DNA of 64,000 bases from a virus (Duplodnaviria; Caudoviricetes), in the IMG/VR virus record IMGVR_UViG_3300035180_001680. One strand, 5' to 3'. The position numbers and the translations under genes are program-made. The notes beneath the pieces were generated by a model. That model was not told the DNA's origin, did not search any database, and worked only from the letters and a program-made list of their open reading frames with translations. This document shows positions 7,229 through 56,351 of the stretch, one piece after another (the stretch's first letter is position 1; every line of letters begins with the position of its first letter).

Positions 7229-8071
7229 TCATTTTATATCATTCAGAATTTGACAAATTGCAAAATTTCCTGATGGACTTACCATATAACTCAACACATC
7301 AACTGCGTTTGCTGTTGGTGTTAACGTTGGAGCAATACCACCAGCAAACTTCCAGTATGAATTAAAGGTTAAAGTTCTCGGAGTTGTTCCATTTTGAATT
7401 ACGATTATTCCACCCTGACCAGCACTAGAATTAACAGGAGAGTTGAGTGTTGAATTTTCTGTCATAACAACGGAGAAGTTGTTTCCTGAATCCATATCTA
7501 GACCGATAATTCCTCCAGAAGAAAACAAATAAACATATTGTCCACGTTGGCCTGCTGTCCATATATTAGATTGAGACGTTATCAAACTACTTGGATTTGC
7601 CCAATATTGATGTCCACCTGAATCAGATATTATAACTGTGTTTGGAGGACTTGTTGTATTTGTTCCAAAATTAATACCAGTAGTAACATTCAATTTATTA
7701 GTGCTTATAATTCCTGAATTGGTTATATTAGTAGATGTTATATTATCAGAAGTTAAAGTTCCATTAACAATAGTTGAAGAGTTAATTGTATCAACGGTTA
7801 ATGTATAAACCGTTGAAGAGAAAGGTAAAGTGTCAATCTCTAATGTGCTATATTGAGAAGAATCAATTGAATATGAGACTGCTGAAGGAGTTACAAAGGT
7901 TGTAGGTCCCGATGCTACAGCTGTTAATAACCACTCTTCACCCGATATTAATGAATTTATGTTATTGGAAAGTAGTGTATCTACACTTGTTTCAATAAAA
8001 TCATCTGGTAAAATGTGAAAAGAGCAAAAATTAAAAGATCCTACTATTGTACTTGTTGTTGGTGTTGGCAC
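7229..8071 (-). CDS. tail-fibre-related structural protein
   Basis: T/S-rich; C-terminal WKFAGGIAPTLTPTANAVDVLSY. Confidence 0.6.
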   Translation of the reverse strand: MPTPTTSTIVGSFNFCSFHILPDDFIETSVDTLLSNNINSLISGEEWLLTAVASGPTTFVTPSAVSYSIDSSQYSTLEIDTLPFSSTVYTLTVDTINSSTIVNGTLTSDNITSTNITNSGIISTNKLNVTTGINFGTNTTSPPNTVIISDSGGHQYWANPSSLITSQSNIWTAGQRGQYVYLFSSGGIIGLDMDSGNNFSVVMTENSTLNSPVNSSAGQGGIIVIQNGTTPRTLTFNSYWKFAGGIAPTLTPTANAVDVLSYMVSPSGNFAICQILNDIK

Positions 8072-8085
8072 TTGTCATTCTCCTT

Positions 8086-11000
8086 TTATAGATATCCACC
8101 GCCACCAACCGCACAATTCCCCACAGAAAATAGTACGTTGGCAACCGGTATTTTTACAGTCATCATTTGGCTAGTATTTGTTCCTGCTCCATTTTGGTGC
8201 GTGTATCCTGTAACTGCTATTTGATTATTACGAACATCCAAACAACGATTTGAGAAATTCCACAACAAACCTTCTGGACTTGCAAAACCTATATCGGAAG
8301 ACCAATCAAGAGTTAGACTTGGAAGACTTATTTTTAGTATTGACCAGTCACTACCAAATGTATTCGTTTGAGGATTTCCAACAGCTATTAATTCAGTTGG
8401 AGTTGCCACAATTTCATAGAGTTGACTATAATTTCCATGAGAATTGTCATATGTTCGAGATGTCACCAACTCACCTATCGTAGCTGTTATTCCTGCACCT
8501 TGTGTGGCAATATATTCACATATACAGAAGTTGGTCGATCTTTGAGTGAAAGCTTGTCCACACACATAAATTGAAGTTCCCCCAGAGTTGTGTAATGTAC
8601 TTCCAATCCCAAGAGTTATACCCGAAAATGTCTTATAGTTAACTAAGTTACCAGCCGCATCATACGCTTGATCATTTATGTGAGTAGCGTCTCCAGATAC
8701 ATCACTTAAGCTAATCCACTGTCTATTTCCTGCCGAATCATAAGCTGCAACAAAACCGTTGTTACTGGAATTGGACAATGAATCCTTAGTAAATAAATTT
8801 CCACACACATATATCTGATTCAGAGAAGGATTATATGTTATTCCTGTTAAACGACAATCACCCCTCGATGATGTTGAATCTTGAATCAACTGTTGCCATA
8901 TAACGGAACCATCGACACCCGACAGTTTTACAATTAAACCAGCGTTCATTTGAAGTCCTGTATTGTCTGGATTTTTAATTATTAAAAATCCACCAGCGTA
9001 AACGTCATTTACGGAATCGACTACAATGTCTGTGATTTGGGGTTGATACGTTCCTGGAGAAGAATTTATATCAATGTTTTGAGTAATACCCACCTGCCAC
9101 AAGACGTCACCATTTGAATTTAATTTGAGTATGGGTTGCGTATTCGATGTACCATAAGAATTAACATTTACTGCCATAATTATGTTATCTTGAGAGTCAA
9201 TCGCACTAGCATCTGCTGTTGCTGTTGATCCAGATGTCCCATTATTATCACTTATAAGTTGTTGCCATACAGTATTTCCTGCAGAATCGACCTTAATTAC
9301 CAATACACTTGTAAGAAAACCTTGATTTACAGAACCAAGAGTTATAATGTTTCCCAAACTGTCAATTTTTACAGTTGAACCTTCAGTTCCGTACGATGTC
9401 AATGCTCCACTTTCAACAACAGATACCCAAGAATCTGGTGTTCCACTGAAAAACCGAATATGTCTTGTATCAGTTGTCATAACGAGTCTACCATCAACAA
9501 CGTATGACATAGTTCCATTAGTTCCAGAATCTGTAATCGTTAATGATGTATCCTCTTGAAAAATCATGTTACTTGCACCGGATGAAAGTGTCCAAGTTCC
9601 TGGTCCGGTTTTTGTTAATACACCTGTTGTTCCAGTTGCGAGATTGGAAATTGCTGTTAAATTAACGTTGAGTGGTTGACCGTCGGTTATCCCATAACCA
9701 GCAAGAGTTGTAGGTTTCCATAATACAGAAGTCCAATCAGGAGTAATTGTAATAGGGGTTCCAGTTGCTGTTACACGTCCTTTCGCGTCGACGGTAAATG
9801 GGGTAGAAGTTAGAGCACTGTTGTTATATGTTCCAGCTGCAACTCCGCTGTTTGAAAGAGTAGTTGTAATACCACTTGTACCCGAACCACTAATATCACC
9901 CGACAAGGTAATTGTTTGATTAGCAGCACTATCGACGTACTGTTTTGTAGCAGCTTGTAGATTAGCAACTGGGTTTGCATTCAAAGTCAAGAAACCCGTC
10001 ATCGTGTCGCCAGATTTAGAGACCTTATCAGAGAGGTCTGACATAATTAGAGTTAACGTTGTATCTAAGGGGGTTCCTTGATAGAAAACATCAGTTGATT
10101 GGTGTGTGTGAGCCAGTGGTGTTCTCGCATCCGACATTCTTGGGTCATTATCTCCAACAGCGATTGGAGTGTTTAAATTAAGTGGATCTAGAGATAATTC
10201 AGTGATACCAATAACAGAACCAGAAGCTTTTTGAGTTACGACAGTATTGGTTACAGCACCCGCATCATTGAAATATCCTTGACCAAATATAATTGAGGTT
10301 GGTGATATCACTCTGGCAATTGGCTGTTGAAAACCTCTCGTAGGGGTGGCTATCCCGGGATTTACGTCAGTTAGTTGACCGTTAGAGTCAATCCATATTT
10401 TTGCATTTGGTGTTTGCCAATCCCAAGCAGGATTAGTAATCATTCCTTGGATTGTAACAAATAAACTTTCTCCGTATGTTGCACTATCAATAGCCATACC
10501 TATAAACCCAGCTGTTGTGTCTTCATAGTTAGCCAAATAATAATCATTGAAATATTCTAACTTCACTGCTGAATAAGAAGGAATACTTTCTCTTGCAATC
10601 CCGACAACAATAGAAGTTTCAAGTTCTGCCGTCCGAACATCAGAATTTTCTATAAAAAACCTATCTTCTGATGTGACGAAAGTCTTGTTAGCTTTTTTAA
10701 TTGGAGTTCCAGTACCGTCTCGTAAAATGCGTCCTGATTTAATAGGAGACGCAACCCCCACTTGTGTTCCAGTAGGATATGGAACAATGATAGAACCATT
10801 TTCAATTTTTGCAGCAAATACTCTAATCTTTGGAGTCCAAGACGAACCACTCCATACCTTCATTGTCATTGAAGAAGTATCAAACCAATGTTGTCCAGTT
10901 GCTGGAATTGTTGGGAACGGGATAGTGGTTTGAAATGGGTCAATAGGACCGAACACGGGAGCTACTGTCGTGAAACCATACGTTACGAGAGCTGTAAGAT

Positions 11001-11238
11001 TATCTATGTCCCAAAAAATCCAAAAATCGGAACTGTTTGAAACAGGAAGACCAGTCCAACGTACAGTCGCATTCTGGCCCAACGGTTCAACGAGAAAATA
11101 TTCTGAACTTTGTTGAGAAAATGTTACGGTTACAGGTTTGTTCGTTGTCGAAAGAGAGATACTATCACTTCCAACAGATGACCAAGATAAAAAATTTGAT
11201 TGATATTGAACCAACCCCTGTCTAAAAGATAACTGCAT
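8086..11238 (-). CDS. large tail fibre / virion structural protein
   Basis: 1050 aa; ATKQYVD and TTLAGYGITDG fibre motifs; C-terminal beta-propeller-like repeats; TATAAATA late motif upstream (~11272). Confidence 0.7.
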   Translation of the reverse strand: MQLSFRQGLVQYQSNFLSWSSVGSDSISLSTTNKPVTVTFSQQSSEYFLVEPLGQNATVRWTGLPVSNSSDFWIFWDIDNLTALVTYGFTTVAPVFGPIDPFQTTIPFPTIPATGQHWFDTSSMTMKVWSGSSWTPKIRVFAAKIENGSIIVPYPTGTQVGVASPIKSGRILRDGTGTPIKKANKTFVTSEDRFFIENSDVRTAELETSIVVGIARESIPSYSAVKLEYFNDYYLANYEDTTAGFIGMAIDSATYGESLFVTIQGMITNPAWDWQTPNAKIWIDSNGQLTDVNPGIATPTRGFQQPIARVISPTSIIFGQGYFNDAGAVTNTVVTQKASGSVIGITELSLDPLNLNTPIAVGDNDPRMSDARTPLAHTHQSTDVFYQGTPLDTTLTLIMSDLSDKVSKSGDTMTGFLTLNANPVANLQAATKQYVDSAANQTITLSGDISGSGTSGITTTLSNSGVAAGTYNNSALTSTPFTVDAKGRVTATGTPITITPDWTSVLWKPTTLAGYGITDGQPLNVNLTAISNLATGTTGVLTKTGPGTWTLSSGASNMIFQEDTSLTITDSGTNGTMSYVVDGRLVMTTDTRHIRFFSGTPDSWVSVVESGALTSYGTEGSTVKIDSLGNIITLGSVNQGFLTSVLVIKVDSAGNTVWQQLISDNNGTSGSTATADASAIDSQDNIIMAVNVNSYGTSNTQPILKLNSNGDVLWQVGITQNIDINSSPGTYQPQITDIVVDSVNDVYAGGFLIIKNPDNTGLQMNAGLIVKLSGVDGSVIWQQLIQDSTSSRGDCRLTGITYNPSLNQIYVCGNLFTKDSLSNSSNNGFVAAYDSAGNRQWISLSDVSGDATHINDQAYDAAGNLVNYKTFSGITLGIGSTLHNSGGTSIYVCGQAFTQRSTNFCICEYIATQGAGITATIGELVTSRTYDNSHGNYSQLYEIVATPTELIAVGNPQTNTFGSDWSILKISLPSLTLDWSSDIGFASPEGLLWNFSNRCLDVRNNQIAVTGYTHQNGAGTNTSQMMTVKIPVANVLFSVGNCAVGGGGYL

Positions 11239-11335
11239 ATACGGCTCCTAATCATTATACTTCACATAAGATATTTATAAAATTATGTTGACGTTTTAAT
11301 TTATATGTTTTATCATTTAATTTGACATTTAGGAG

Positions 11336-11692
11336 TTGTGTATGGCTAGACCAAAAGGTAGCAAGAACAGAAATAAAGAAAATGTTATCGAAGCAGTTCA
11401 AACAGAAAAACGTCCTCGGGGGCGTCCTCGTAAAATACCAACAGAGTTAGTTGAAGTTAAAGAAAAGCGTCCTCGAGGACGTCCTCGTAAGAATCAAATT
11501 AATTCAAAAGTTCAACCTAATACAAATTTAGAAGAATTCCCTGAAAAGAGTATATCAAAAAATTCTTTACCTGAAATAGAAGAAGATTATAGTTCCGTGA
11601 TGGATAGTTATTCAACAACTCGTTGGACGTCTGATGATTGGAGTGGAAGTAATTTTGATAATTTTTCGATTGGTTCTGATTACATGTATTAA
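11336..11692 (+). CDS. AT-hook DNA-binding protein
   Basis: two KRPRGRPRK motifs plus ARPKGSKN; acidic tail. Confidence 0.65.
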   Translation: MCMARPKGSKNRNKENVIEAVQTEKRPRGRPRKIPTELVEVKEKRPRGRPRKNQINSKVQPNTNLEEFPEKSISKNSLPEIEEDYSSVMDSYSTTRWTSDDWSGSNFDNFSIGSDYMY

Positions 11693-11877
11693 CCGTGTTT
11701 GGTTTTCATGTTATAACTATCAAGTAAAGCAATAGGGACTGGTGAAACCAGTCCCTTTCTATGTAAAAAACATATTTGGTTAAGAAAATCAGAGTAATAC
11801 GTTGGATGAAGAGCAATTCCCTTCGCGAGGTATAGCTGTAAAATATCACAACTTACCCTATCCCGCATATAAACTCC

Positions 11878-12114
11878 TTAATGAATAGAATCGTAGTATC
11901 GTTTCTTTATGTTAGAAATACATTTCTTTTGAGCAGATGTAGATAGGTGTTCGAATTTAGGATCATTGTCAAGCATTACGTCTATCGCTTCGTCGAAGGA
12001 CATTTTATCATTCTCGATCATGTCCGCTAATGTCTCGACCCATAACTTATAGTCTGCTTCTGATACATTTGAGTATTCATCTTTGGTGGTTTCGAGGAGT
12101 TGGTTTAATTTCAT
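11878..12114 (-). CDS. hypothetical protein (MKLNQLLE start)
   Basis: 79 codons. Confidence 0.55.
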   Translation of the reverse strand: MKLNQLLETTKDEYSNVSEADYKLWVETLADMIENDKMSFDEAIDVMLDNDPKFEHLSTSAQKKCISNIKKRYYDSIH

Positions 12115-12200
12115 TTTGTTTCCAGTATAGAGAGTGAACGTATTTATACTAAAGTCAAACAGTTGTTTAAAATAAATCCACTCTCCAACATAACGCTTGG

Positions 12201-12686
12201 TTACGTTTGTGTTTCGGGTGTTGGATCCACGCTGCGCCAAACCATTAAAACACCTTCCTGTTTTCGAACGTTTACGTGCCCTGGAAGTCCTGTTTTATCA
12301 AACCGTTTGAATTGGCGAAGAACAGGCATCGAAATTCCATATTTTTCGATGAATTGTTCTGCAGGAACAGGAGTTTCGGTGATGGCTAAGAACGCTGTTT
12401 GAATTTTATCACCCTTACGCCCGCGCTTTTTTTCGGTAGTCGTGGAAGCTATGTTTTTGATTTTTGGTTTATTGGAACTTACACGCCCAAACAAAACTCC
12501 ATAAGGTTCAACGTTTAAAGTTGTATCTACTTGAAAAACGCCCTTTGAAATTAGTGCTTTTGCAGTATTAAGTTCTTGAGAAGTAACCCCAAGAACCGTA
12601 CACGCTTGATCGTCAGATGGATGGTATGCGTTAATTAGGGCAAAACGCTGACCCCAAGAGAGATTTGTAATTGAAATGTTCGTCAT
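12201..12686 (-). CDS. hypothetical protein
   Basis: 161-aa ORF; sigma70-like promoter upstream. Confidence 0.65.
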   Translation of the reverse strand: MTNISITNLSWGQRFALINAYHPSDDQACTVLGVTSQELNTAKALISKGVFQVDTTLNVEPYGVLFGRVSSNKPKIKNIASTTTEKKRGRKGDKIQTAFLAITETPVPAEQFIEKYGISMPVLRQFKRFDKTGLPGHVNVRKQEGVLMVWRSVDPTPETQT

Positions 12687-12778
12687 AATTTGTTTTCCTT
12701 TCGTTGCTGGTTAAATGAGGTTAGTTCTCATTGTTAATATAATATATCAAAAAATATTTAAGGTCAACACAGTGATCA

Positions 12779-12806
12779 ACAAAAAAGGCGCCAAAGCGCC
12801 TTTTTT
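12779..12806. terminator. bidirectional intrinsic terminator
   Basis: AAAAAAGGCGC-CAAA-GCGCCTTTTTT. Confidence 0.75.
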
Positions 12807-12825
12807 GTGTGAGTAATGTTATATT

Positions 12826-13420
12826 TTATTTGGTTATTGTCCACAAATCGCTTGCTAAATTTCGATCTACCACGTATTGATATGGCATTGTAAAGTATCC
12901 ACCCTGCCCCCCAACTTGCCCCCCAAAAAATTGCGGACGATTACTCGTTGAGTAGTATTATCATATCCCACCATAAGAACAGCGTGTCCTCCTTGACATT
13001 GTTCACCATCAACAGGCATTATTCAGTATTCCCGTTTGGGCTACTTGATCACTTTCAAAACTACCGAAAACTGTAAACCCGAATATGATAGGATAACCTG
13101 AAGTCAAAACTTGTTTAATACCGTTTACACCGTTTGAACGATCTACACGAGCATAAGCTGAAATTTTTTCTTGAGAGTGCATCAGAATAAGCGGAATCAA
13201 CAGGTTTAATGGCGAAACGATAAGTTAAGTATGGACAAACATCTTCTGAACACACACCAAATGTTGCTAACGTTTGGATTCCACCACAAATTCTTGCACC
13301 AGCATCTTTAGTAATTGTTCCTTCCATGTTGCGTTCATTGTAATAAACAAATAACCTACTTAAGTCAGCAAATTTATTATTTAATTCAAATTCGTTTGTC
13401 TTATTTTCAAGAAACTCCAT
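12826..13420 (-). pseudogene. papain-like (C1) cysteine peptidase, frameshifted and N-terminally truncated
   Basis: LSRLFVYYNER, GVCSE..CPY, GGHAVLMVGYD and GYFTMPY split over several frames; catalytic-Cys region absent. Confidence 0.75.
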
Positions 13421-13455
13421 AAAAAATTACATTTTAAACTAACACCGCAAACCTT

Positions 13456-14244
13456 TCAACGATTGATTGAGTAATCATATAAGGCTGAAAATATTTTTGA
13501 TACGTTATGATTGTAAAAACCTGATGAGTTAATACAGTTAAATTCTATAACCTTTATTTTGTCATCGACAAGAGCTGTGTCCATAACACAACACGGACTT
13601 GGTACCCACTTATCGGCGAATTTTTGTGCTTCTTTTATAACGCCAGTTTCCGTTTCATGATTTTTAATTAATCGTCCATTTGCACGGTACATGGAACCGT
13701 CAACAATTTCCCCTCCAACAACAAACCAACGCCATTCAGCTTGAATCGTCTGTGGTTCAGCAAGAACAATCATCGTTTCCGGTTCCATTTTATAAGTACC
13801 AGACATGTCACATTCCATTGCATCTTTGAGCCATTCTCTACATTCTTTCGCTTCAATAATTTGTCCAGAAAATTGTTTCAGATCTTCTGAAGGACGAATA
13901 AACCAAAGTTCGTTATCTGGTCTCGTGTGTAAAAACTCAATCGTCACGTTCAATGGTTTAATGAACTGTGCATTCATCATATCGTCACGGTTGGATGCAG
14001 CAGCTTCGTAATTGAATTTAGCTAAATCAAAATAGAGACCTTCCCATTTTAATTCATAATCAAGGTTTGTTAATAGTGTTGAACCATAAGGAATGTATTT
14101 GGTTCCTGTTAATGGTTCGGTTGAAGTTATTTCTCGAGAGAAAGGAATTAATCCAACAAATTCATGTGGGTAGTGTTCAACAGCAGCTTTTGTTAACTGA
14201 AGTTGTTCTTTATCCATTAAATTGTGTTGAATAAGAAATTTCAT
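13456..14244 (-). CDS. ATP-grasp domain protein (DUF4343-like)
   Basis: FIRPSEDLKQFSG, EWRWFVVGGEIV, KVIEFNCINSSGFY. Confidence 0.75.
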   Translation of the reverse strand: MKFLIQHNLMDKEQLQLTKAAVEHYPHEFVGLIPFSREITSTEPLTGTKYIPYGSTLLTNLDYELKWEGLYFDLAKFNYEAAASNRDDMMNAQFIKPLNVTIEFLHTRPDNELWFIRPSEDLKQFSGQIIEAKECREWLKDAMECDMSGTYKMEPETMIVLAEPQTIQAEWRWFVVGGEIVDGSMYRANGRLIKNHETETGVIKEAQKFADKWVPSPCCVMDTALVDDKIKVIEFNCINSSGFYNHNVSKIFSALYDYSINR

Positions 14245-14450
14245 TTATTTAACTCCTCTCACTATAATATAACCAATCGCGCCGTCCGCACACATCACAT
14301 TTATACCCTTCTGTGTCCATGTCTTTATCTTTTGGGTCTCTTTTCATATTTGGACAATCGTGAATTTCGTATCCAGGGCGAATTTTGTCTTTGTTGATAC
14401 ATCAAGGACGACAATCTTGATTTATTTGCACGATTTACTTCTATTGTGTT

Positions 14451-14538
14451 TGGCGGAAGTAGTAGGATTTGAACCCACGTGCCCTTTCGGACCATCTGCT
14501 TTCAAGGCAGCGCCAATAAACCGCTCTGGCATACTTCC
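14451..14538 (-). tRNA. tRNA-Ser(TGA)
   Basis: GCTGC-CTTGAAA-GCAGA; long variable arm; G73; CCA. Confidence 0.92.
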
Positions 14539-14626
14539 AATACTATTTACTCGAACAACTTTGTCCCCAATAACAAATTCTTTCTCCAACACACCGACCA
14601 GTTTCTTTCCAAACCAATCTCCCTCT

Positions 14627-14992
14627 TTAACTCGTTACAACATCGCTGTCTCCTGTTACAGGAATAATTTCCATTAAAGTTTTGTTCGTTGAGTTTTGTT
14701 CATTTGCTTCTCGAATCTGTTCCGCAAATGACGCATACACACTACCCATTAAACCACTCATACGTTCAGACCCCTTATAACAAACATACACGGAACCAGA
14801 AGAATTTGTAAATTCATAACGGTCATCGAATTCTTCTTGTTGTGTAATACCTGAACTTAACTTCCAACTGTCACCATTAAGGTATCCACCATACCAACCT
14901 GCAAAAATCTTTTCTATTTCTCCAAATTCATCATTTGTGAATTTGACCTTAACCCAACAATCTGGTGTATATTTACTCATATTATATTCCAA
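14627..14992 (-). CDS. hypothetical phage protein
   Basis: YTPDCW...GWYGGYLNGDSWKLSSGIT. Confidence 0.7.
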   Translation of the reverse strand: MEYNMSKYTPDCWVKVKFTNDEFGEIEKIFAGWYGGYLNGDSWKLSSGITQQEEFDDRYEFTNSSGSVYVCYKGSERMSGLMGSVYASFAEQIREANEQNSTNKTLMEIIPVTGDSDVVTS

Positions 14993-14995
14993 AAG

Positions 14996-16498
14996 TTAAA
15001 TTGTAACGAGTTGATAACGTTCACTGTTAATAACATCAAGCATCAAATCATAAGCAGACAAAAATTCTCCACCTATTGTATGCTTAAAGATAGACGGACT
15101 ACATCCACTAACCATTTGAAAACCACGCTCATCCATACTCATTGGAAACTGTTGGTTCTGAGCATCAACATTCCAAAACACCAAATTGGGCATTGTATAT
15201 CCACACTCACCAAATTCTTTAGAAATTGTTTGGAATAATTTTTCGTCAACCATACCCCGACCTTGATGCTCATAAGAATATCTAGCGTTGCTTGTAGCGG
15301 CATCAAATTCCATGTCAGAAATGATATACAACTTCTGTGGTAATTCAGATTGTGCTAACTTGTTTTGTTTGGCAACAGTAAGAATCAAACGGAACACAGC
15401 TTGAATATCTGTATTCATTTCCCATGCAGAACTATTCATATTGGCTATTTTTTCAACAAGGTCAGCTCCCTGAATTTTAAGTAGTTGAGGTGTAGAGCTA
15501 AAAGTAATGAACTTGTTATGATAAGCTTCACAAGTGTTACGTTCAGCCAAATACATTCCAACCGAAATGGCAACTTCCAATGGAAGACCAGCCATAGAAC
15601 CAGACACATCAACTACAGCAAGAGCATTTTCTTGTTTATCTCCAATATAGTTTGGAAGAGCGTCCCACAACGCATCCATGAGTTGGCGTTCGTGTTGTGG
15701 TGTGTTCCTGCCCATCGTAAATGCTTTGCGGACGATTTCATATGGAAAAAGAACACTCGCATTGATTTTCTTTTCGCCAGTCTTTAAAGAATCCAAGAAT
15801 TTCTTACGGCGTTCAGCATCGTGCGCGAAAAAAGCTTTCCCATATAACAAGTTAGCTTGAGAGGGAACGGCACTGTATTCAATACTATCCCACTGATTGG
15901 CAGACACCAACCGTTCAACAATGTTAATTTTCTTACGAAGAGTGCTCAACATCAAGCGATATGCTTTGGATCTTAATTTAAGACCCTTACGAGTTTTTGT
16001 TGCAAGTCGTTTCGTTTCTTTTGAAGAAGCGTTTTCACTTTTCAACCATTTTGCAAGCAACGAGGGATGTTCAGATGCCACGTCTTCGGTAATCTGTGTA
16101 AAGATTAGTGCAATCGCATCTGTTTCAAGTTCTGTATCAAATAACACATACAAATCATCCCAACGTCCAAAGTATGGAATAAGTTTAATGTTTTTACGGA
16201 CAGCGTCAGGGTTAACGTTAATCAACCACTTTAATTGCTTTCTAAACGTATCACGTTCACCTTGACCACCACGAGCGTCCCTGAAATAGAACATAGCACG
16301 AGTGGCTAACAATGCATTTTCTGCATAAGCTTTTGAAAACAAATGAAGAATTTCATCATCATCACGATTGCGGAGTGCACCACCCTGTGCAAACAAATCC
16401 AACATAGCTGATTTGGTTGTATCAAATGCAACAGCACCATTTTCCGTGTGTGCTACATTGGTTGTAATAGAAAGGGCATCCACAAATTCTTTGCTCAC
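14996..16498 (-). CDS. DUF2828 / TROVE-VWA (Ro60-like) protein
   Basis: TENGA, FYFRDARGGQGER, FGRWDDL, AKWL; VWA motif VVDVSGSM; ISDMEFD. Confidence 0.85.
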   Translation of the reverse strand: MSKEFVDALSITTNVAHTENGAVAFDTTKSAMLDLFAQGGALRNRDDDEILHLFSKAYAENALLATRAMFYFRDARGGQGERDTFRKQLKWLINVNPDAVRKNIKLIPYFGRWDDLYVLFDTELETDAIALIFTQITEDVASEHPSLLAKWLKSENASSKETKRLATKTRKGLKLRSKAYRLMLSTLRKKINIVERLVSANQWDSIEYSAVPSQANLLYGKAFFAHDAERRKKFLDSLKTGEKKINASVLFPYEIVRKAFTMGRNTPQHERQLMDALWDALPNYIGDKQENALAVVDVSGSMAGLPLEVAISVGMYLAERNTCEAYHNKFITFSSTPQLLKIQGADLVEKIANMNSSAWEMNTDIQAVFRLILTVAKQNKLAQSELPQKLYIISDMEFDAATSNARYSYEHQGRGMVDEKLFQTISKEFGECGYTMPNLVFWNVDAQNQQFPMSMDERGFQMVSGCSPSIFKHTIGGEFLSAYDLMLDVINSERYQLVTI

Positions 16499-16515
16499 TT
16501 GTTTCTCCTTTTATC

Positions 16516-16577
16516 AAGACACATTTTACTGGTTAGATTAAATGTCTAGTGTATTATGCGATTGCTGTTAGTGTCTT
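16516..16577 (-). ncRNA. structured RNA motif copy 2, directly upstream of the TROVE gene RBS
   Basis: AAGACAC-TAACAGCAA...GTGTCTT. Confidence 0.55.
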
Positions 16578-16584
16578 TAAACTA

Positions 16585-16809
16585 TTAAAGATTTCTTATA
16601 ACTTGAAATTCATATTGTGGTGGAACTATAACTGCTTTTACGTCTTTAGGCAACGCTTTGTCAAGTGCGTTCGAAATTTCTATTATTTTACTCTTCTTAA
16701 ATAGAGAATCGTCATGAACTTTTATGACTAAAACATCACCTGGATTAAGTTCCAGTTTTGAAATTTCCACCAATACGGTGTTAAAATTAATAACTGGTTG
16801 AGAATCCAT
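16585..16809 (-). CDS. hypothetical protein
   Basis: 74 aa; LELNPGDVLVIK. Confidence 0.6.
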   Translation of the reverse strand: MDSQPVINFNTVLVEISKLELNPGDVLVIKVHDDSLFKKSKIIEISNALDKALPKDVKAVIVPPQYEFQVIRNL

Positions 16810-17030
16810 TATTCGTCTTTACTAGTATCAGTTCGTTCAACACGCTTCTTTTTGTTTGCTTGGTATGTCAATTCAGCTGAAATCATAGCACGTTTGTATG
16901 CATCACGTGCATGCTTATCTTCAATTGAAGCCATCATACGCTTAATTGATCCCGGTAACTTAAAATGCCGGTTGGGTTTTCCAATAATCACTGCAACCGC
17001 TTGATCTTTCTTTGCTTTTTTGGTAGTCAT
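16809..17030 (-). CDS. small basic hypothetical protein
   Basis: 73 aa; RBS present. Confidence 0.6.
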   Translation of the reverse strand: MTTKKAKKDQAVAVIIGKPNRHFKLPGSIKRMMASIEDKHARDAYKRAMISAELTYQANKKKRVERTDTSKDE

Positions 17031-17054
17031 TTTGGTCCTTTTCGTTAATTTAAC

Positions 17055-17206
17055 AAGACGCCAACCGAAGCTCGGTCAACACCTACCGTATTGAAACACG
17101 GTAGCACGTTTTTGTTGTAGTCTCCATTGGGAAGCTTCACAAGAGCAATCTCCTCCACTTCCCAGATTCTCCACAACTCAAGTCAAAAGATTGCTGTGTG
17201 CGTCTT
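17055..17206 (-). ncRNA. structured RNA motif copy 3 (expanded interior)
   Basis: AAGACGC-ACACAGCAA...GCGTCTT, compensatory change in the stem. Confidence 0.55.
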
Positions 17207-17289
17207 AAACTTCAATAAAGACATTTTACGGTGATTAAAATCAAAAATCAACGATATTATTCGCAGTTATCGGAAAATTTTTCCCAATG

Positions 17290-18375
17290 GTCTGGCCCAT
17301 TGACACGATTTATCAAGAGCGTGTACTCTCTTTTTTCAAAGTGACAGTTCACAAGTATGCTTTAAACAATCTGCATTACCAACTCTCTAACCCCTTTTAC
17401 AAGGGAGGTTCTACACAGATTGTTTAAAGCAGACACCTCAATCGAGGCATTTACTTTGTATAAGGTTGAGATTAAACCTATACTATTGATACCTTCGAGA
17501 CATTATCTCATCACCTGCTACAGCTAGAGTTCTTCTCTTATCCACATAATCAGCTTTCGCACAACTATGTCTATCAACATGACTGCATTTTTTAAGTGGT
17601 TGCTTTTCCACCAACATGTAAAGCTACTCGATTATCTGTCTACCGCCAACCTTGCGAGCTGTACAAGAGCGCTAACTCTCTGCGTGCGACTTTCTTTCAA
17701 CATCCTCGACCTTGCGAGTTTTGGACGCCTTCATTACCTTGCGGCTGAAGGATTAAGCCATTTTCACTTTACACTGGAAACGTCTTTGCGTTTTATGTAA
17801 TATAATCCAAATTTATATGGGCTGTTAACCCTAACATTGTTAAACCTACCAAGAAGTGCGTTTCCAGTGGATTTCATACCTTTTGAGTATAAAAATACCA
17901 CACTCCTCATGTTTTTCATCTGCCGACTACTCAACCAGTTTTCAGGAATCGTGACACCCTATTACAGGTACCAAAACCCCCTCAACTTGCACAACAGCCC
18001 TTACTTGCGGGTTCGGACCACTGTACTACCCTTTACCTTTTGAGATGGCTAGTTTGTGTAGGCGTGAGGTCGGCACAACCCGTTACTCTCCAAATGCCCA
18101 AGTTCCCTGCAGAGCAGGCTTGTAAACATTCGTTCTTTCCACACCCCTAACTTCCCTCATATGACTACCGTTGGCGATAATCAGCTCCTTTCGGAGTAGG
18201 TCAGGCTTGCTTGTTTGTACCCCTTACAGGGCGCGGTAGTTGTAGGACCTACCGCTTTCACAACATCGCTGTTGGTTACTTTGCACAAGCGCGTAATTCT
18301 TTATCTTTTAAATTGTTTCTGATGAAACGTTCTGAATTCACAGAACTAATTAAAAGAGTGACTTTCTTAATACTA
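17290..18375 (-). ncRNA. large ornate ncRNA, GOLLD-like candidate
   Basis: ~1 kb with no credible CDS; many GCAA/GAAA-capped helices; long inverted repeats; own TTGACT-17-TAAAGT promoter; next to tRNAs. Confidence 0.55.
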
Positions 18376-18657
18376 TCTGTATACTTTATACTAACTTCTT
18401 CATTAAGTCAACAGATATTTAAATTATTTTTGTTGTATTGTTTACTCCTCATGTAACCACCTTGCCTTCTCCTGGTTGATTTCGAAGAACAATCCAAACC
18501 AACCTGGGTGAGCTCCTTGCGAGAGCACAACACAACAAAAACAACTCAAAGTCTATTTTACTACTTTTATTTCGTATCGTCAACAACTAATTTTGTACTA
18601 ACTTCAAAATCACATTCAGTACAAAACACCTTCTTTGACCGCCTAACAATATAATCT

Positions 18658-18733
18658 TGGTAGCGGGGGTCAGACTTGCACTGACCTATTTCGGCTTATG
18701 AGACCGGTGATGAACTACCTCCTCTACCCCGCA
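18658..18733 (-). tRNA. tRNA-Met(CAT), 1:72 mismatch (initiator-like)
   Basis: CCGGT-CTCATAA-GCCGA; T1:T72; CCA. Confidence 0.75.
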
Positions 18734-18907
18734 ATTAATACAAAAGTGTAGACGGTCTGTTTTTCACTAAAGAATGGCGTACCAGTCCTGATCATTGATG
18801 TTATCTCCAATTTACTACACTTTTAATCATCGTTAGAAACGCTCGGTCCTTTATAGAGCTTCGGATCCCTTCCTGTGGAATTGAACCACACCCTTTTCTA
18901 ACTTCTC

Positions 18908-18981
18908 GGTGCCCAATGTCGGAATCGAACCGACGGTCAAGTGTTTTAGAAGCACCTGCTTTACCATTAAGCCAATTGAGC
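18908..18981 (-). tRNA. amber suppressor tRNA(CTA)
   Basis: GCTCAAT-TG-GCTT..AAGC-A-GGTGC-TT-CTA-AA-ACACT-TGACC-GTCGG-TTCGATT-CCGAC-ATTGGGC-A-CC. Confidence 0.75.
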
Positions 18982-19072
18982 AATCATTTGCTAATATTAC
19001 TTGTTCTTTTAAATAATGTCAACAAATGTTTCTCATTGAATTTATTTACTATAAACAAGGAGTTCGCTGACT

Positions 19073-19327
19073 TTAAATACCAATTCCCGCATGAATAGTG
19101 GGTTCATTTTTGGAAAAATTAAACTCGTTTTTCATGTAATAGTCAGCCAATTTTTCTGTAATCATGCGGATTACATCCGAATAGGAACGTTCCAACACAA
19201 AACGAACATTTGTGTGCCGCCAGGATTTCGTTCGTAAAAATTCATAAACAATTGTCCTATGTTCACGATTAGAAGGGTCGAATATGGTATATTGAGCCGC
19301 AAATTTAAAAATTTCTGTATTCATCAT
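19073..19327 (-). CDS. hypothetical phage protein
   Basis: FDPSNREHR..VYEFLRTKSW. Confidence 0.6.
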   Translation of the reverse strand: MMNTEIFKFAAQYTIFDPSNREHRTIVYEFLRTKSWRHTNVRFVLERSYSDVIRMITEKLADYYMKNEFNFSKNEPTIHAGIGI

Positions 19328-19328
19328 A

Positions 19329-19835
19329 TTAGACCCTATTAAAAGCAATACAACTGTTAGTGTATTGGTGGTCGTTCGTAACTTCTTCACCGACCCAATC
19401 TGGTAAAATTAAACTATCAATTTCTAGCTGAGATTTGTTTTGATTAAACTCGATTTCGGCTACGATAAGCCCCTCGTGTTTTCCCCCAAACACATCAACT
19501 TCCCACAAGTGATAATTATTTTTAACAATGTAACGAACCTTCTCTATGGAATTATGTTCAAAAGCTGAAAATAACTCTTTAGCTAACGTTGGTTCGATAT
19601 CAAATTCGAATTCCTCCCGCCTCAACATATCACCAGTGTCTTTTTTAATAGTCATTCTGTACCAAGACAGGACCTGGGGAACAGATTCAGTCTTTATCCG
19701 AACTCGAGTATTCGGAGCAATGTATGCTTGTTTAATATGAAAAGTTCGAACGATATTGTTCCTCCAATTATCGTTTTTTACTAGAAACTTTCGTTCGATT
19801 TCAAGATTCATTTTTGTTTCTTTGTTTATAATCAA
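19329..19835 (-). CDS. CYTH-domain protein (triphosphate tunnel metalloenzyme)
   Basis: EIERKFLV; WEVDVF...LIVAEIE. Confidence 0.9.
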   Translation of the reverse strand: MIINKETKMNLEIERKFLVKNDNWRNNIVRTFHIKQAYIAPNTRVRIKTESVPQVLSWYRMTIKKDTGDMLRREEFEFDIEPTLAKELFSAFEHNSIEKVRYIVKNNYHLWEVDVFGGKHEGLIVAEIEFNQNKSQLEIDSLILPDWVGEEVTNDHQYTNSCIAFNRV

Positions 19836-20262
19836 TCGTTAACACTACTTCATCTTTTCCAGTCCAAACTTCACAAAGTCCGTGTTCACCCCATTCACTC
19901 AACACACTCATTTCACCATCACGCCAAAGCTCAGGACTAGCACAAACATAACCTCTTGGAGTAGTAACGCTAGTTTTGTTTGTCCAGGGGTGACCATAAT
20001 CTGTCCATCGCCAGAAACAGTTACAACAACAGCGATCGTGCCACTCTTCTTTCATACATTTGTGATTAATCATCATTAGTTCATCATTCATTAAATGAAA
20101 TTTGTCGTCAGGACAAATTGCTTCAACGGGAACAACCTCGACGTTTGTATACCACTGGGGGTGTTGTTGAATAATACCTAACTTTGTCGTTAGCGAGTTT
20201 GGAGTTTGTGTAAAGGTGAGCATCTTGGCGGTTCTCTGATGAACCCTTACCAATAGACTCAT
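19801..20262 (-). CDS. hypothetical Cys-rich protein
   Basis: 153-aa ORF; start uncertain. Confidence 0.45.
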   Translation of the reverse strand: MSLLVRVHQRTAKMLTFTQTPNSLTTKLGIIQQHPQWYTNVEVVPVEAICPDDKFHLMNDELMMINHKCMKEEWHDRCCCNCFWRWTDYGHPWTNKTSVTTPRGYVCASPELWRDGEMSVLSEWGEHGLCEVWTGKDEVVLTIDYKQRNKNES

Positions 20263-20696: not shown

Positions 20697-22033
20697 CAAT
20701 CTCTCAACTAAGAAAACCCCAGATGCTTCAACATCGGGGATGAATTAGTTGATCTCTCTTCTAACTTCCCCCATAAATACTCTTATACAAAGGGAGAACA
20801 CCACTTGCATAAAGCATACACGTTCCGATTAAATCCGACAACAGATCAGGAAACCGCGCTGAAACAGACAGGTGGATCAGTTCGTTGGTTGTGGAACCAA
20901 ATGTTAAAAGCAAATATTGACAAATATGCTGCTGAGGGGAAGTTTAATTTTCAGTTCGATATGAACCGGATGACAACGAAGTTGAGGGCCGAGATTCCGT
21001 GGCTTGAAGAGGTGAATAGCCAGGTTTTGCAGCAGAAAAACAGGGATTTAGATAAATCAATCAAAGCAAAAATCGCAAGGAAAACCAAACAGACTGGATT
21101 TCCTAAATTTAAGAAAAAGACAGAAAACAATGATTCATTTCGAGTTCCTGGTGGTTTTAAGTTATCGAATAAAGGCGTAAAATTGCCTAAAATCGGATGG
21201 ATTTCGTGGAAAATCAATAGAAAACTTCAGGGGAAAGCGAAAAATATTACATTTAAACAAGTAGGTGATAAGTGGAACGCAGTTGTTTTGTGCGAGATTG
21301 CTGATGTAGAACCAAGAACATTGTTTTCTGATGCCGAAGTTATCGGAATTGATGTTGGAATTAAAGATTTTGCTGTGTTGAGCAATGGAAAGAAGATTGC
21401 TAATCCCAAGGACCTTGAGAAGAGTTCTCGGTTGTTAAAGAGAAAACAACAATCACTCTCTAAGAAGGTTAAAGGATCTTCCAATCGAATCAAAGCAAGA
21501 AAATCTGTTGCTAAGTTGCACAGATCTGTAGCAAATAAAAGAAAAGACTTCCAGTGGAAACTAGTTGATTTGATAACCAAAAATCACTCAGTTGTTTGCA
21601 TGGAAGACCTGAATATTAGCGGAATGGTCAAGAACAGAAAGTTGGCTAAATCAATCGAATCTGCTGGATGGAGAATGTTTAAAGAAAAACTTAAACATAA
21701 ACTAGCAGAGACAGGTGGTTTGGTTGTCAATATCCCTAGATTTGCTCCATCTTCTAAAATGTGCTCATCGTGTGGAGCATTAAATCATTCTCTGACTCTA
21801 AAAGATAGAGAGTGGAAATGTGATTGCAATGCTGAACACGATAGAGACATTAACGCTGCGATTAATATTCGGAATATTGGTTTAAATACGCTGGGAACTA
21901 GCGGAATTTACGCCTGTGGAGTTGCCTCTGATGGGGATATAGCATATGATATATCTAGTTATGCAATGATGAAGCAGGAAAATCTGGGCGTTGGCCTGGA
22001 AGCCCCAAATGCTTTAGCATTGGGGTAGTTCAC
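20697..22033 (+). mobile_element. IS200/IS605-family (TnpB-only) insertion element
   Basis: preceded by TTTAT; left-end hairpin; right end ...GGGGTAGTTCAC; removing it restores the flanking gene frame; no target duplication. Confidence 0.85.
20805..22028 (+). CDS. tnpB: TnpB RNA-guided endonuclease
   Basis: HKAYTFRLNP HTH; RuvC GIDVG, MEDL, DRDINAA; Zn ribbon SKMCSSCG. Confidence 0.93.
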   Translation: MHKAYTFRLNPTTDQETALKQTGGSVRWLWNQMLKANIDKYAAEGKFNFQFDMNRMTTKLRAEIPWLEEVNSQVLQQKNRDLDKSIKAKIARKTKQTGFPKFKKKTENNDSFRVPGGFKLSNKGVKLPKIGWISWKINRKLQGKAKNITFKQVGDKWNAVVLCEIADVEPRTLFSDAEVIGIDVGIKDFAVLSNGKKIANPKDLEKSSRLLKRKQQSLSKKVKGSSNRIKARKSVAKLHRSVANKRKDFQWKLVDLITKNHSVVCMEDLNISGMVKNRKLAKSIESAGWRMFKEKLKHKLAETGGLVVNIPRFAPSSKMCSSCGALNHSLTLKDREWKCDCNAEHDRDINAAINIRNIGLNTLGTSGIYACGVASDGDIAYDISSYAMMKQENLGVGLEAPNALALG

Positions 22034-38038: not shown

Positions 38039-38698
38039 TTAGAAGTTGTACTTGGCACCAACTGTCCACCTCTTACCAGGCGTAAGAGTTAGGTTGTTAC
38101 TGTCAACCCAAGCAAGCTCTCCAACGATATTCTTGGTGAACTGCTTATTAAGTCCAAGTTTGTAGTCATTTGCTTTGTTGGAAGTACCATCAAGGTCAAG
38201 ATGTCCAACGTGACCAACACCAATCAACCCATAAGGAAGTTGATATGTTCCATTAACTTCTGTATAAAAAGAATGTTTTCCAGAACCAAAATAGTCAGAA
38301 GAATAAGACGTTTTCAACTGTGTTGTGACATTATCAAACTTCAAATTTCCAGCAACACTATACTCTGTGGTTTGGAGAGATGAAACACCAGGAAAGTTGT
38401 AACTAATAGCACCCACATCAACTGAAACATCTTTGGTTACAGGAATGTTATAGTTAATCATGGCGTCCAGTTCAACGTCGTCGCCTGAATTCTTTACAGA
38501 AGTTGCGGTTGCGCCAACTGTCAAATTATTAAGAGTGTATTTAACGTTACCCTGAATACTCGGGTCGTTGTTTGAAAGTGAAGCACCACGGAAAACATAG
38601 TCAGATGCAACACCAACACTACCTGATAAACCACCCGCAAAAGCGGACGACGCAACAACAGAACCCAAAAGTAAAGCAATAAGCATTGAATTTTTCAT
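38039..38698 (-). CDS. TorF-like outer-membrane beta-barrel protein
   Basis: signal peptide; SDYVFRGASLSNNDPSIQG; C-terminal GAKYNF. Confidence 0.75.
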   Translation of the reverse strand: MKNSMLIALLLGSVVASSAFAGGLSGSVGVASDYVFRGASLSNNDPSIQGNVKYTLNNLTVGATATSVKNSGDDVELDAMINYNIPVTKDVSVDVGAISYNFPGVSSLQTTEYSVAGNLKFDNVTTQLKTSYSSDYFGSGKHSFYTEVNGTYQLPYGLIGVGHVGHLDLDGTSNKANDYKLGLNKQFTKNIVGELAWVDSNNLTLTPGKRWTVGAKYNF

Positions 38699-38860
38699 AT
38701 TTTTAAATCTCCTTAGGTTATGTGATTTCTTTATCACCATTCTATATTACTATAGAAGAACACTATTTAGCAACGAAACACAACAGGGTTATTTAAATTA
38801 TTTTTCAAAGTATGGCTTTTCAGCAAATATCTAAATAAGTTAAACGATGGAGTATTAATT

Positions 38861-39082
38861 ATGAATATAACAGGTCAGGTAAAAGATGTACTAAATCTTT
38901 TGATTGATAAAACATTGTATCTTTCATTAATAGATGGGACATCACTGGTGGGAACAATTGAATTATATGATGAAGTTTTTGTGGCTATTAAAACAGAGGA
39001 ACGTCAAAGGTTTACGACAAACCCAATAGAACAAACGATTATCGTTCCTATTAATTCTATCGTGAAGATTAAGTTAGTTTAA
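38861..39082 (+). CDS. Sm/Hfq-like small protein
   Basis: LIDGTSLVGTIELYDEVFVAI...IVPINSIVKI. Confidence 0.5.
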   Translation: MNITGQVKDVLNLLIDKTLYLSLIDGTSLVGTIELYDEVFVAIKTEERQRFTTNPIEQTIIVPINSIVKIKLV

Positions 39083-55839: not shown

Positions 55840-56159
55840 TGGTGCCCCGAGCCAGATTTGAACTGGCACGCTCGAAAGCGAGGGATTTTAAGCGGTTGTG
55901 TCTCGAAGTTTCCTTCAAGCCCGGACTATCTCTTTACCTTCAACATTATTTGGTCAGGTAATGGGCGTTCAAAGCTGGTTATTAAGAGGACTAAACCTCT
56001 CCAGTAGTCTCTACACCTTCAAGTGATGTATCACTTGCTTGGCTCGCGATTGCCATTTTAAAGGCTCTCCCGAATTAACCCATAGTTTACTCAAAGTTTC
56101 CAATTGAGGGGGACTAGCGTCATGCGATCCCTTGTGTCTACCAATTTCACCATCGGGGC
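55840..56159 (-). tRNA. tRNA-Leu(TAA) interrupted by a group I intron
   Basis: 5-prime exon GCCCCGATGGTGAAATTGGTAGACACAAGGGA; 3-prime exon CTTAAAATCCCTCGC...GGGGCACCA. Confidence 0.88.
55893..56127 (-). other. group I self-splicing intron (~235 nt, no ORF)
   Basis: core elements AATTCGGGAGAGCC (P), AATCGCGAGCCAAG (Q), GTAGAGACTA (R), AAGAGATAGTCC (S); P3 ATGGG/CCCAT; terminal G. Confidence 0.85.
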
Positions 56160-56275
56160 ATTAAATTATAAAAGAACAGTCACACCAAAAACATTTACTT
56201 CTGAGTCATTCTTCTAACTCCTTCTTTACTGGGAGACTATTATATATTAAGTATCCCATAAAGTCAACAAAAATT

Positions 56276-56351
56276 TGGTGGGCCTGGAGGATTACGATAC
56301 CTCGACCTTGGCGTTATGAGCACCCTGCTACTTCCTCTGAGCTACAGGCCC
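56276..56351 (-). tRNA. tRNA(CAT), Ile2- or Met-type
   Basis: GGGCCTG acceptor; GGGTG-CTCATAA-CGCCA; CCA. Confidence 0.75.

Follow-up and report, generated by a model that had tools for sequence, protein, structure and literature searches.

What is encoded by the stretch of about 1 kb that lies beside the tRNA genes of this phage and appears to hold no gene, and is it a known RNA or a new kind? The earlier note had proposed, by eye, a large ornate RNA resembling GOLLD on the minus strand between 17290 and 18420, furnished with a promoter of its own. The window, i.e. the whole 64,000-nucleotide stretch analyzed here, belongs to an IMG/VR virus record of 178,796 bases, the completeness of which is put at 52% by CheckV; by extrapolation, this implies a genome of roughly 340 kb and hence a jumbo phage. 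Besides 23 tRNA genes, the window encodes two RNA ligases, a helicase, a head-decoration protein and a TROVE/Ro-like RNA-binding protein. The longest open reading frame touching 17290-18420 is only 81 aa, and the region was thus rightly described as ORF-free.

By scanning the whole window against Rfam 15, we found a match to the GOLLD model (RF02032) within this region, with 198.8 bits (E 1.3e-54) against a gathering score of 150 bits. According to cmscan the match is untruncated and runs end to end through model positions 1-416 out of 416, which bears out the original guess. A permissive rescan of 16900-19100 with all 4227 Rfam families at E <= 1 returned only GOLLD and one tRNA; of the three models that the earlier note had named for a check, GOLLD was hence found above its threshold, while ROOL and OLE, as well as other large-RNA families, gave no match at that E-value. 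ROOL is likewise a large, ornate and phage-associated RNA found near tRNAs, and it also builds cages of RNA only (an 8-mer or 6-mer nanocage, PMC12286853), but its sequence and fold are unrelated to those of the GOLLD seen here. Several further traits of GOLLD, a family first cited to Weinberg et al. 2009 in PMC12286853, are present as well. A 5' domain that is distinct and structured though less conserved, and a total length of about 700-830 nt, are matched by two domains totaling about 828 conserved nt, and the location in phages or prophages near tRNA genes by the tRNA island of this phage, so that size and location fit the family (as portrayed in PMC12286853) just as had been argued. We consider it highly likely that positions 18281-17454 of the minus strand encode an intact, full-length GOLLD RNA of an uncultured jumbo phage (Table 1). 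The ORF-free stretch is a further copy of a known family and not a new kind of RNA.

Table 1. Features of the GOLLD locus and its upstream tRNA genes, in window positions.
Feature	Position	Strand	Basis
Conserved full-length GOLLD RNA, ~828 nt, 5' and 3' domains	17454..18281	-	nhmmer homology, alignment A3, covariation
GOLLD 5' domain, 373 nt	17909..18281	-	homology and covariation; outside Rfam model
GOLLD 3' domain	17463..17908	-	RF02032 match
Variable linker, 66 nt	17785..17850	-	A3 columns 502-606
Pseudoknot helix closing linker, 17869-17859 with 17782-17772	17772..17869	-	covariation
Lineage-specific 3' hairpin, 16-19-bp stem, no U-tract, directly after GOLLD	17358..17431	-	fold
Sigma-70-like promoter candidate, TTGACT-17-TAAAGT	18383..18411	-	consensus scan, 9/12
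Non-canonical tRNA-Met(CAU)-like gene, ~380 nt upstream of GOLLD	18658..18733	-	ARAGORN -ps90 only
tRNA, anticodon CUA (amber-suppressor type)	18908..18981	-	ARAGORN and Rfam tRNA, 63.9 bits

Relatives were collected by scanning viral contigs for a motif common to the window, its nearest relative and the Xanthomonas phage XacN1, namely AACGCAAAG followed after 55-85 bases by CTCGCAAGG. This yielded at least 119 GOLLD loci, many of them on contigs of 150-374 kb. Within the phage collection, megablast of 8000-20000 gave no match and blastn of 17000-18700 matched XacN1 only. The nearest relative found, the 257-kb viral contig IMGVR_UViG_3300024983_000001 (hereafter G001; locus L010, 1125-1953), was reached via its neighboring TROVE-like gene and carries a GOLLD scoring 215.8 bits. 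Its identity to the window is about 73% in the 5' domain and 85% in the linker, and 70% for the remainder of the 3' domain. Like the window, it has a linker of the tRNA-less type, a TROVE-like gene downstream and, at the position aligned to the promoter candidate, a promoter-like site. The two loci differ in that two tRNAs follow directly after the GOLLD of G001, where the window has a hairpin with a 16-bp stem, and in the distance to the TROVE-like gene, ~7 kb as opposed to ~1 kb in the window.

The Rfam model spans the 3' domain only and leaves out the 5' domain, and the limits of the RNA were consequently drawn from homology. With nhmmer, the 3' part was found to be homologous to 87 of the 119 viral GOLLD loci and, in a single-sequence search, the 5' part (~18271-17909) to 47 of them (E 1e-33 to 1e-9), whereas 18331-18700 and 17250-17462 had no homolog in the 119 loci; the conserved RNA is therefore placed at about 18281-17454. 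The span originally assigned does contain this RNA but is too wide, as homology stops at these limits, and on sequence comparison the 5' leader and the 16-bp hairpin are lineage-specific and not part of the conserved GOLLD. Every motif that had been picked out by eye is found where it was said to be, and most of these motifs correspond to conserved helices. All four GCAA loops were found on the minus strand, three of them (GCAA or CGCAA) capping 3'-domain hairpins at ~17739-17742, 17712-17716 and 17652-17656, and one in a 5'-domain hairpin near 18013-18003 (loop ~18006-18009). The CUCC-GAAA-GGAG hairpin lies at 18197-18184, also in the 5' domain, and GCGGUAG/CUACCGC at 18255-18233 corresponds to a conserved helix of 4 bp that is longer in the window. 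The 11-bp inverted repeat turned out to be the conserved, covarying pseudoknot helix, in which the segment right after the linker pairs with the bulge in the first hairpin of the 3' domain. Only the 16-bp repeat has to be set apart, for although it is real and perfect over 15-16 bp (17359-17373 / 17416-17430), it is located outside the conserved RNA.

Base pairing was assessed in an alignment of 36 full-length GOLLD members (A3), for which RNAalifold predicted 210 pairs, 166 of them with compensatory double changes. For the covariation count, the 5-bp core of the pseudoknot was added to this structure, giving 215 pairs, and the result was compared with column shuffles and with controls in which the 3' partners were slid by 1-3 columns. 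Standard pairs occupied 96.4% of the cells, against 75.3% in the column shuffles (none out of 500 reached the observed value) and 37-42% with slid partners. The number of pairs changed on both sides was 169, compared to a shuffle average of 117.7 and 67-96 in the slid controls, and the covariation scores were 0.621, 0.217 and 0.07-0.09, respectively. The helices of the 5' domain (A3 columns 14-439) are all at least 91% paired, and double changes occur in all of them except one two-pair helix. In the pseudoknot core (17866-17862 / 17779-17775), 94% of the cells are paired across the 36 sequences and three of the five pairs show compensatory changes, while the long-range helix that the Rfam consensus has in the 3' domain, enclosing the GNRA-capped hairpins (17774-17766 / 17624-17616 in the window), is 99.4% paired in the same set, has double changes in eight of its nine pairs and is canonical at all nine in the window. 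The two-domain secondary structure is maintained by compensatory evolution.

A GOLLD RNA would be expected to be expressed as a discrete species that rises during lytic growth. The promoter attributed to the RNA is the weakest item among the earlier proposals: the candidate at 18411-18383 agrees with the consensus at 9 of 12 positions, and this is a consensus match in a surrounding stretch where 12 promoter-like sites were counted against 4.5 expected from shuffles. G001 carries TTGACT-17-TATAAT at the position aligned to it. Transcription from this candidate would start near 18376, ~95 nt before the first conserved helix, and would thereby add a non-conserved leader (18376-18282, ~95 nt) with an unremarkable fold (z = -1.0). 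On the downstream side, the hairpin directly after the GOLLD is very stable (-40.4 kcal/mol, z = -7.4) and may be a 3'-end or processing hairpin. It has no homolog in the 119 GOLLD loci, and the idea that it is a repeated element was discarded, as it occurs a single time in the window and the 179-kb record. Another long, imperfect hairpin of ~126 nt (18425-18550, minus strand, -42 kcal/mol, z = -4.3), situated between the tRNA-Met-like gene and the promoter candidate, is likewise without homolog in the 119 loci.

The RNA may either start at the weak promoter or be excised from a longer transcript coming from the upstream tRNA genes. The latter is a possibility that we take seriously, even if we think it the less probable one, and it rivals only the own-promoter part of the interpretation. 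In that case, one long minus-strand transcript would extend from the tRNA with anticodon CUA via the tRNA-Met-like gene and the GOLLD toward two small ORFs and the TROVE-like gene. The GOLLD would be cut out of it by processing of the RNase P/Z type or of another kind, its 3' end being marked by the hairpin at 17358-17431. It is a live alternative because no terminator-like site was found on the minus strand in 16900-19100 and because all these neighbors have the same orientation as the GOLLD. Furthermore, better promoter matches exist upstream (19022-18994 and 18583-18555, both 10/12), tRNAs directly abut the 3' end of the GOLLD in G001, and a tRNA is adjacent on either side in 31 of the 87 loci, out of 119, that have full flanks. 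A separate start is favored, on the other hand, by the fact that the window and G001 each have a promoter-like site located ~95-130 nt upstream of where the conserved RNA begins, and by the hairpin at 18425-18550, which could end upstream transcripts.

Returning to the full-length GOLLD RNA itself, its most variable part is the linker, which in the window holds a small hairpin (GGG-UUAACAG-CCC) and, according to ARAGORN, no tRNA. That this linker (J13/15) can hold a tRNA has been described before (PMC12990946; PMC12286853), e.g. for the tRNA-Phe in Mycolicibacterium, which PMC12990946 cites from Morgado et al. 2020. The window shares with such tRNA-carrying GOLLDs the scaffold, the position of the linker and the enclosing covarying helix, and differs from them in having a linker without a tRNA or a detectable remnant of one. 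Among the sampled relatives, ARAGORN identified a tRNA in the linker of 51 out of 119 (43%) and none in the other 68. In 29 of the 36 aligned members, a tRNA-sized insert stands between the AAAACGCAAAG motif and the first hairpin of the 3' domain, the remaining type being a short tRNA-less linker of 45-66 nt, as in the window, the nearest relative, XacN1 and four others. We also considered, and rejected, that the window's linker arose from a tRNA by decay: a profile built from the embedded tRNAs matched only the shared AAAACGCAAA tail, and it revealed no tRNA remnant in this or the other short linkers. The identities of the embedded tRNAs (A3 columns 516-592; loci L013-L131) are diverse, including Asn-GUU (11), Lys-CUU (9), Lys-UUU (5) and Arg-UCU (4) as well as Thr, Ile, Met and more. 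In a few of them, ARAGORN saw an anticodon loop of 8 nt or the "stop" anticodon UUA. This diversity among close relatives suggests frequent swapping of the tRNA in the lumen, and such wide variation in content argues against a single fixed tRNA cargo.

The higher identity between the window and G001 in the linker than in either structured part is a hint, drawn from two sequences, that the linker sequence may matter in this lineage. One could go further and suppose that the lumen-facing linker is here a selected functional element instead of a spacer or tRNA carrier, because the tRNA was lost or never present and yet the identity exceeds that of the structured domains and the hairpin is kept; we deem this unlikely. 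If true, the linker would be a tethered internal bait or a cargo signal, and would offer a handle on what GOLLD cages enclose.

The absence of an embedded tRNA, which most of the aligned relatives carry, could also be read as a sign of decay, as could the 16 out of 207 consensus pairs (those with letters in the window) that are non-canonical, four of them in a single hairpin at 17528-17508. That the locus is a decaying, non-functional GOLLD remnant is nevertheless very improbable. Linkers without a tRNA are common in the family, the model match is full length, and the 191 pairs kept by the window amount to 92%, similar to the other members with their range of 88% to 99%. The mismatches are moreover clustered, either in the columns of the absent tRNA or in the one lineage-specific hairpin, which is common to the window, G001 and the loci L062 and L032 and appears to be folded differently in this sub-lineage, and the differences from G001 are largely compensatory. 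Least probable is that the stretch is protein-coding, e.g. by a short plus-strand ORF antisense to the GOLLD, or that it represents a different class of large RNA, e.g. ROOL or OLE: there are short ORFs of 50-81 aa, and an antisense ORF of ~109 aa recurs in 12 of the 119 loci, but the latter is expected from conserved RNA sequence alone and is missing from ~90% of the loci, the substitutions follow base-pair covariation and not codons, and no other Rfam family for such an RNA was detected at E <= 1.

The nearest canonical tRNA upstream is the one with anticodon CUA, ~630 nt from the GOLLD. The amber recoding that such a tRNA might hint at was rejected, as reading TAG as sense raises the ORF cover less than doing so with TGA or TAA. 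Closer by is the tRNA-Met-like gene, which has a U1.U72 mismatch, one mismatch in the D-stem, an unusual T-loop (UGCAAGU) and an encoded CCA, and which was missed by both default ARAGORN and the Rfam tRNA model at E <= 1; its 1:72 mismatch recalls initiator tRNA. Downstream of the GOLLD are the gene of the TROVE/Ro60-like RNA-binding protein (14996-16498, minus strand; DUF2828 and DUF7788; phrog_850, E 5e-136) and that of an R2K-clade ATP-grasp protein (13456-14244, minus strand). Homologs of the former are found beside tRNA arrays in other viral contigs as well. A functional link between GOLLD and TROVE-like proteins was not upheld as a general rule, since a tblastn search found a TROVE-like homolog in only one of the 119 GOLLD loci. 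PF25043 was absent from all 15 large GOLLD-bearing viral records examined, nine of which are at least 90% complete (positive control 3/3), and TROVE-bearing relatives were mostly without a GOLLD in the sequence examined. Neither was a family-wide protein partner found among the other neighbors, as the largest neighbor clusters reach only 16 of the 119 loci. The recurrent ones include a metallophosphoesterase, a DSP-type phosphatase, an AAA_33 kinase, an RNase H-like protein, a dCMP deaminase and an RF-1-domain protein, and look like synteny within one subclade with a flavor of RNA repair and translation. Elsewhere in the window, a group I intron match (RF00028, 61.5 bits, 55902-56183, minus strand) lies ~90 nt downstream of a same-strand tRNA-Met (56276-56351), and a TnpB gene (OrfB_IS605 / Cas12f-like TNB / RuvC; 20805-22028, plus strand) is oriented opposite to its neighbors inside the tRNA island.

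In GOLLD RNAs, the two half-shells are joined by self-complementary kissing loops, of which L21a carries the dinucleotide GC or CG, and L21b is conserved. The inner three-way junction of the 3' domain in the window has two adjacent hairpins, 17680-17665 and 17661-17647. The loop of the first, UUAGCG (17675-17670), contains GC, and the loop at this position in XacN1 contains CG; the loop of the second, CGCAA (17656-17652), is nearly invariant. We provisionally equate these hairpins with P21a and P21b, and their loops with L21a and L21b. By cryo-EM, GOLLD RNAs have been seen to form closed dihedral cages without protein (PMC12286853; PMC12990946). The env-38 GOLLD of 833 nt (PDB 9MEE, listed in PMC12990946) forms a D7 14-mer nanocage measuring 380 Å across (Kretsch et al. 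2025, PMC12286853), in which 5' domains make up the caps and 3' domains the rings, with a disordered linker inside (PMC12286853), while the 700-nt GOLLD of S. agalactiae (PDB 9L0R), in which several helices are missing, is a 12-mer (PMC12990946). The window copy is like env-38 in size (828 versus 833 nt), in its separate 5' and 3' domains, in the variable linker after the first 3'-domain hairpin and in its several GNRA-capped hairpins, and both reside in a phage tRNA island, env-38 downstream of a tRNA-Met and the window copy downstream of the tRNA-Met(CAU)-like gene. It differs in belonging to another phage lineage, with a linker sequence, 5' leader and 3' hairpin of its own.

From the match in size and the presence of both adjacent inner-junction hairpins, we infer by analogy that the window's GOLLD resembles the 14-mer env-38 form. 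Once transcribed in infected cells, the RNA would probably assemble by itself, without protein, into a closed dihedral cage of ~12-14 copies. In this cage, two caps would be built from the 5' domains and the equatorial rings from the 3' domains, and the lumen would receive the linker. As a matter of speculation, the role of the cage would most likely be a translation- or tRNA-related support of phage growth, e.g. by sequestering or scaffolding tRNA or ribosome-associated cargo. The surroundings of tRNA and RNA-repair genes in the window and in one subclade fit such a role without establishing it.

A GOLLD was also identified in the cultured jumbo phage XacN1, with 227.3 bits and unannotated in the record (L011:2887-3300, minus strand, corresponding to AP018399.1 ~38570-38983). 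A second match in the same record probably reflects the 66-kb terminal repeats. The XacN1 GOLLD occupies an ORF-free gap in a tRNA-rich region, beside tRNAs, a tmRNA-like gene (L011 4274-4693) and two suppressor tRNAs. It is not mentioned in the XacN1 genome paper (PMC5852040), and none of the papers listed in a literature search for XacN1 and GOLLD contains both terms.

Taken alone, the window copy is a routine annotation of a further GOLLD from an uncultured phage. Among the findings, only the GOLLD of XacN1 has a practical value that goes beyond annotation, as it offers a tractable system for knock-out and expression work. For the family as a whole, a covariation-backed alignment now covers the 5' domain omitted by the Rfam model, and the helix closing the linker, being conserved and covarying, supplies material for the question of cage function. 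To that same question, the window copy adds a full-length, tRNA-less GOLLD of env-38 size from a jumbo phage.
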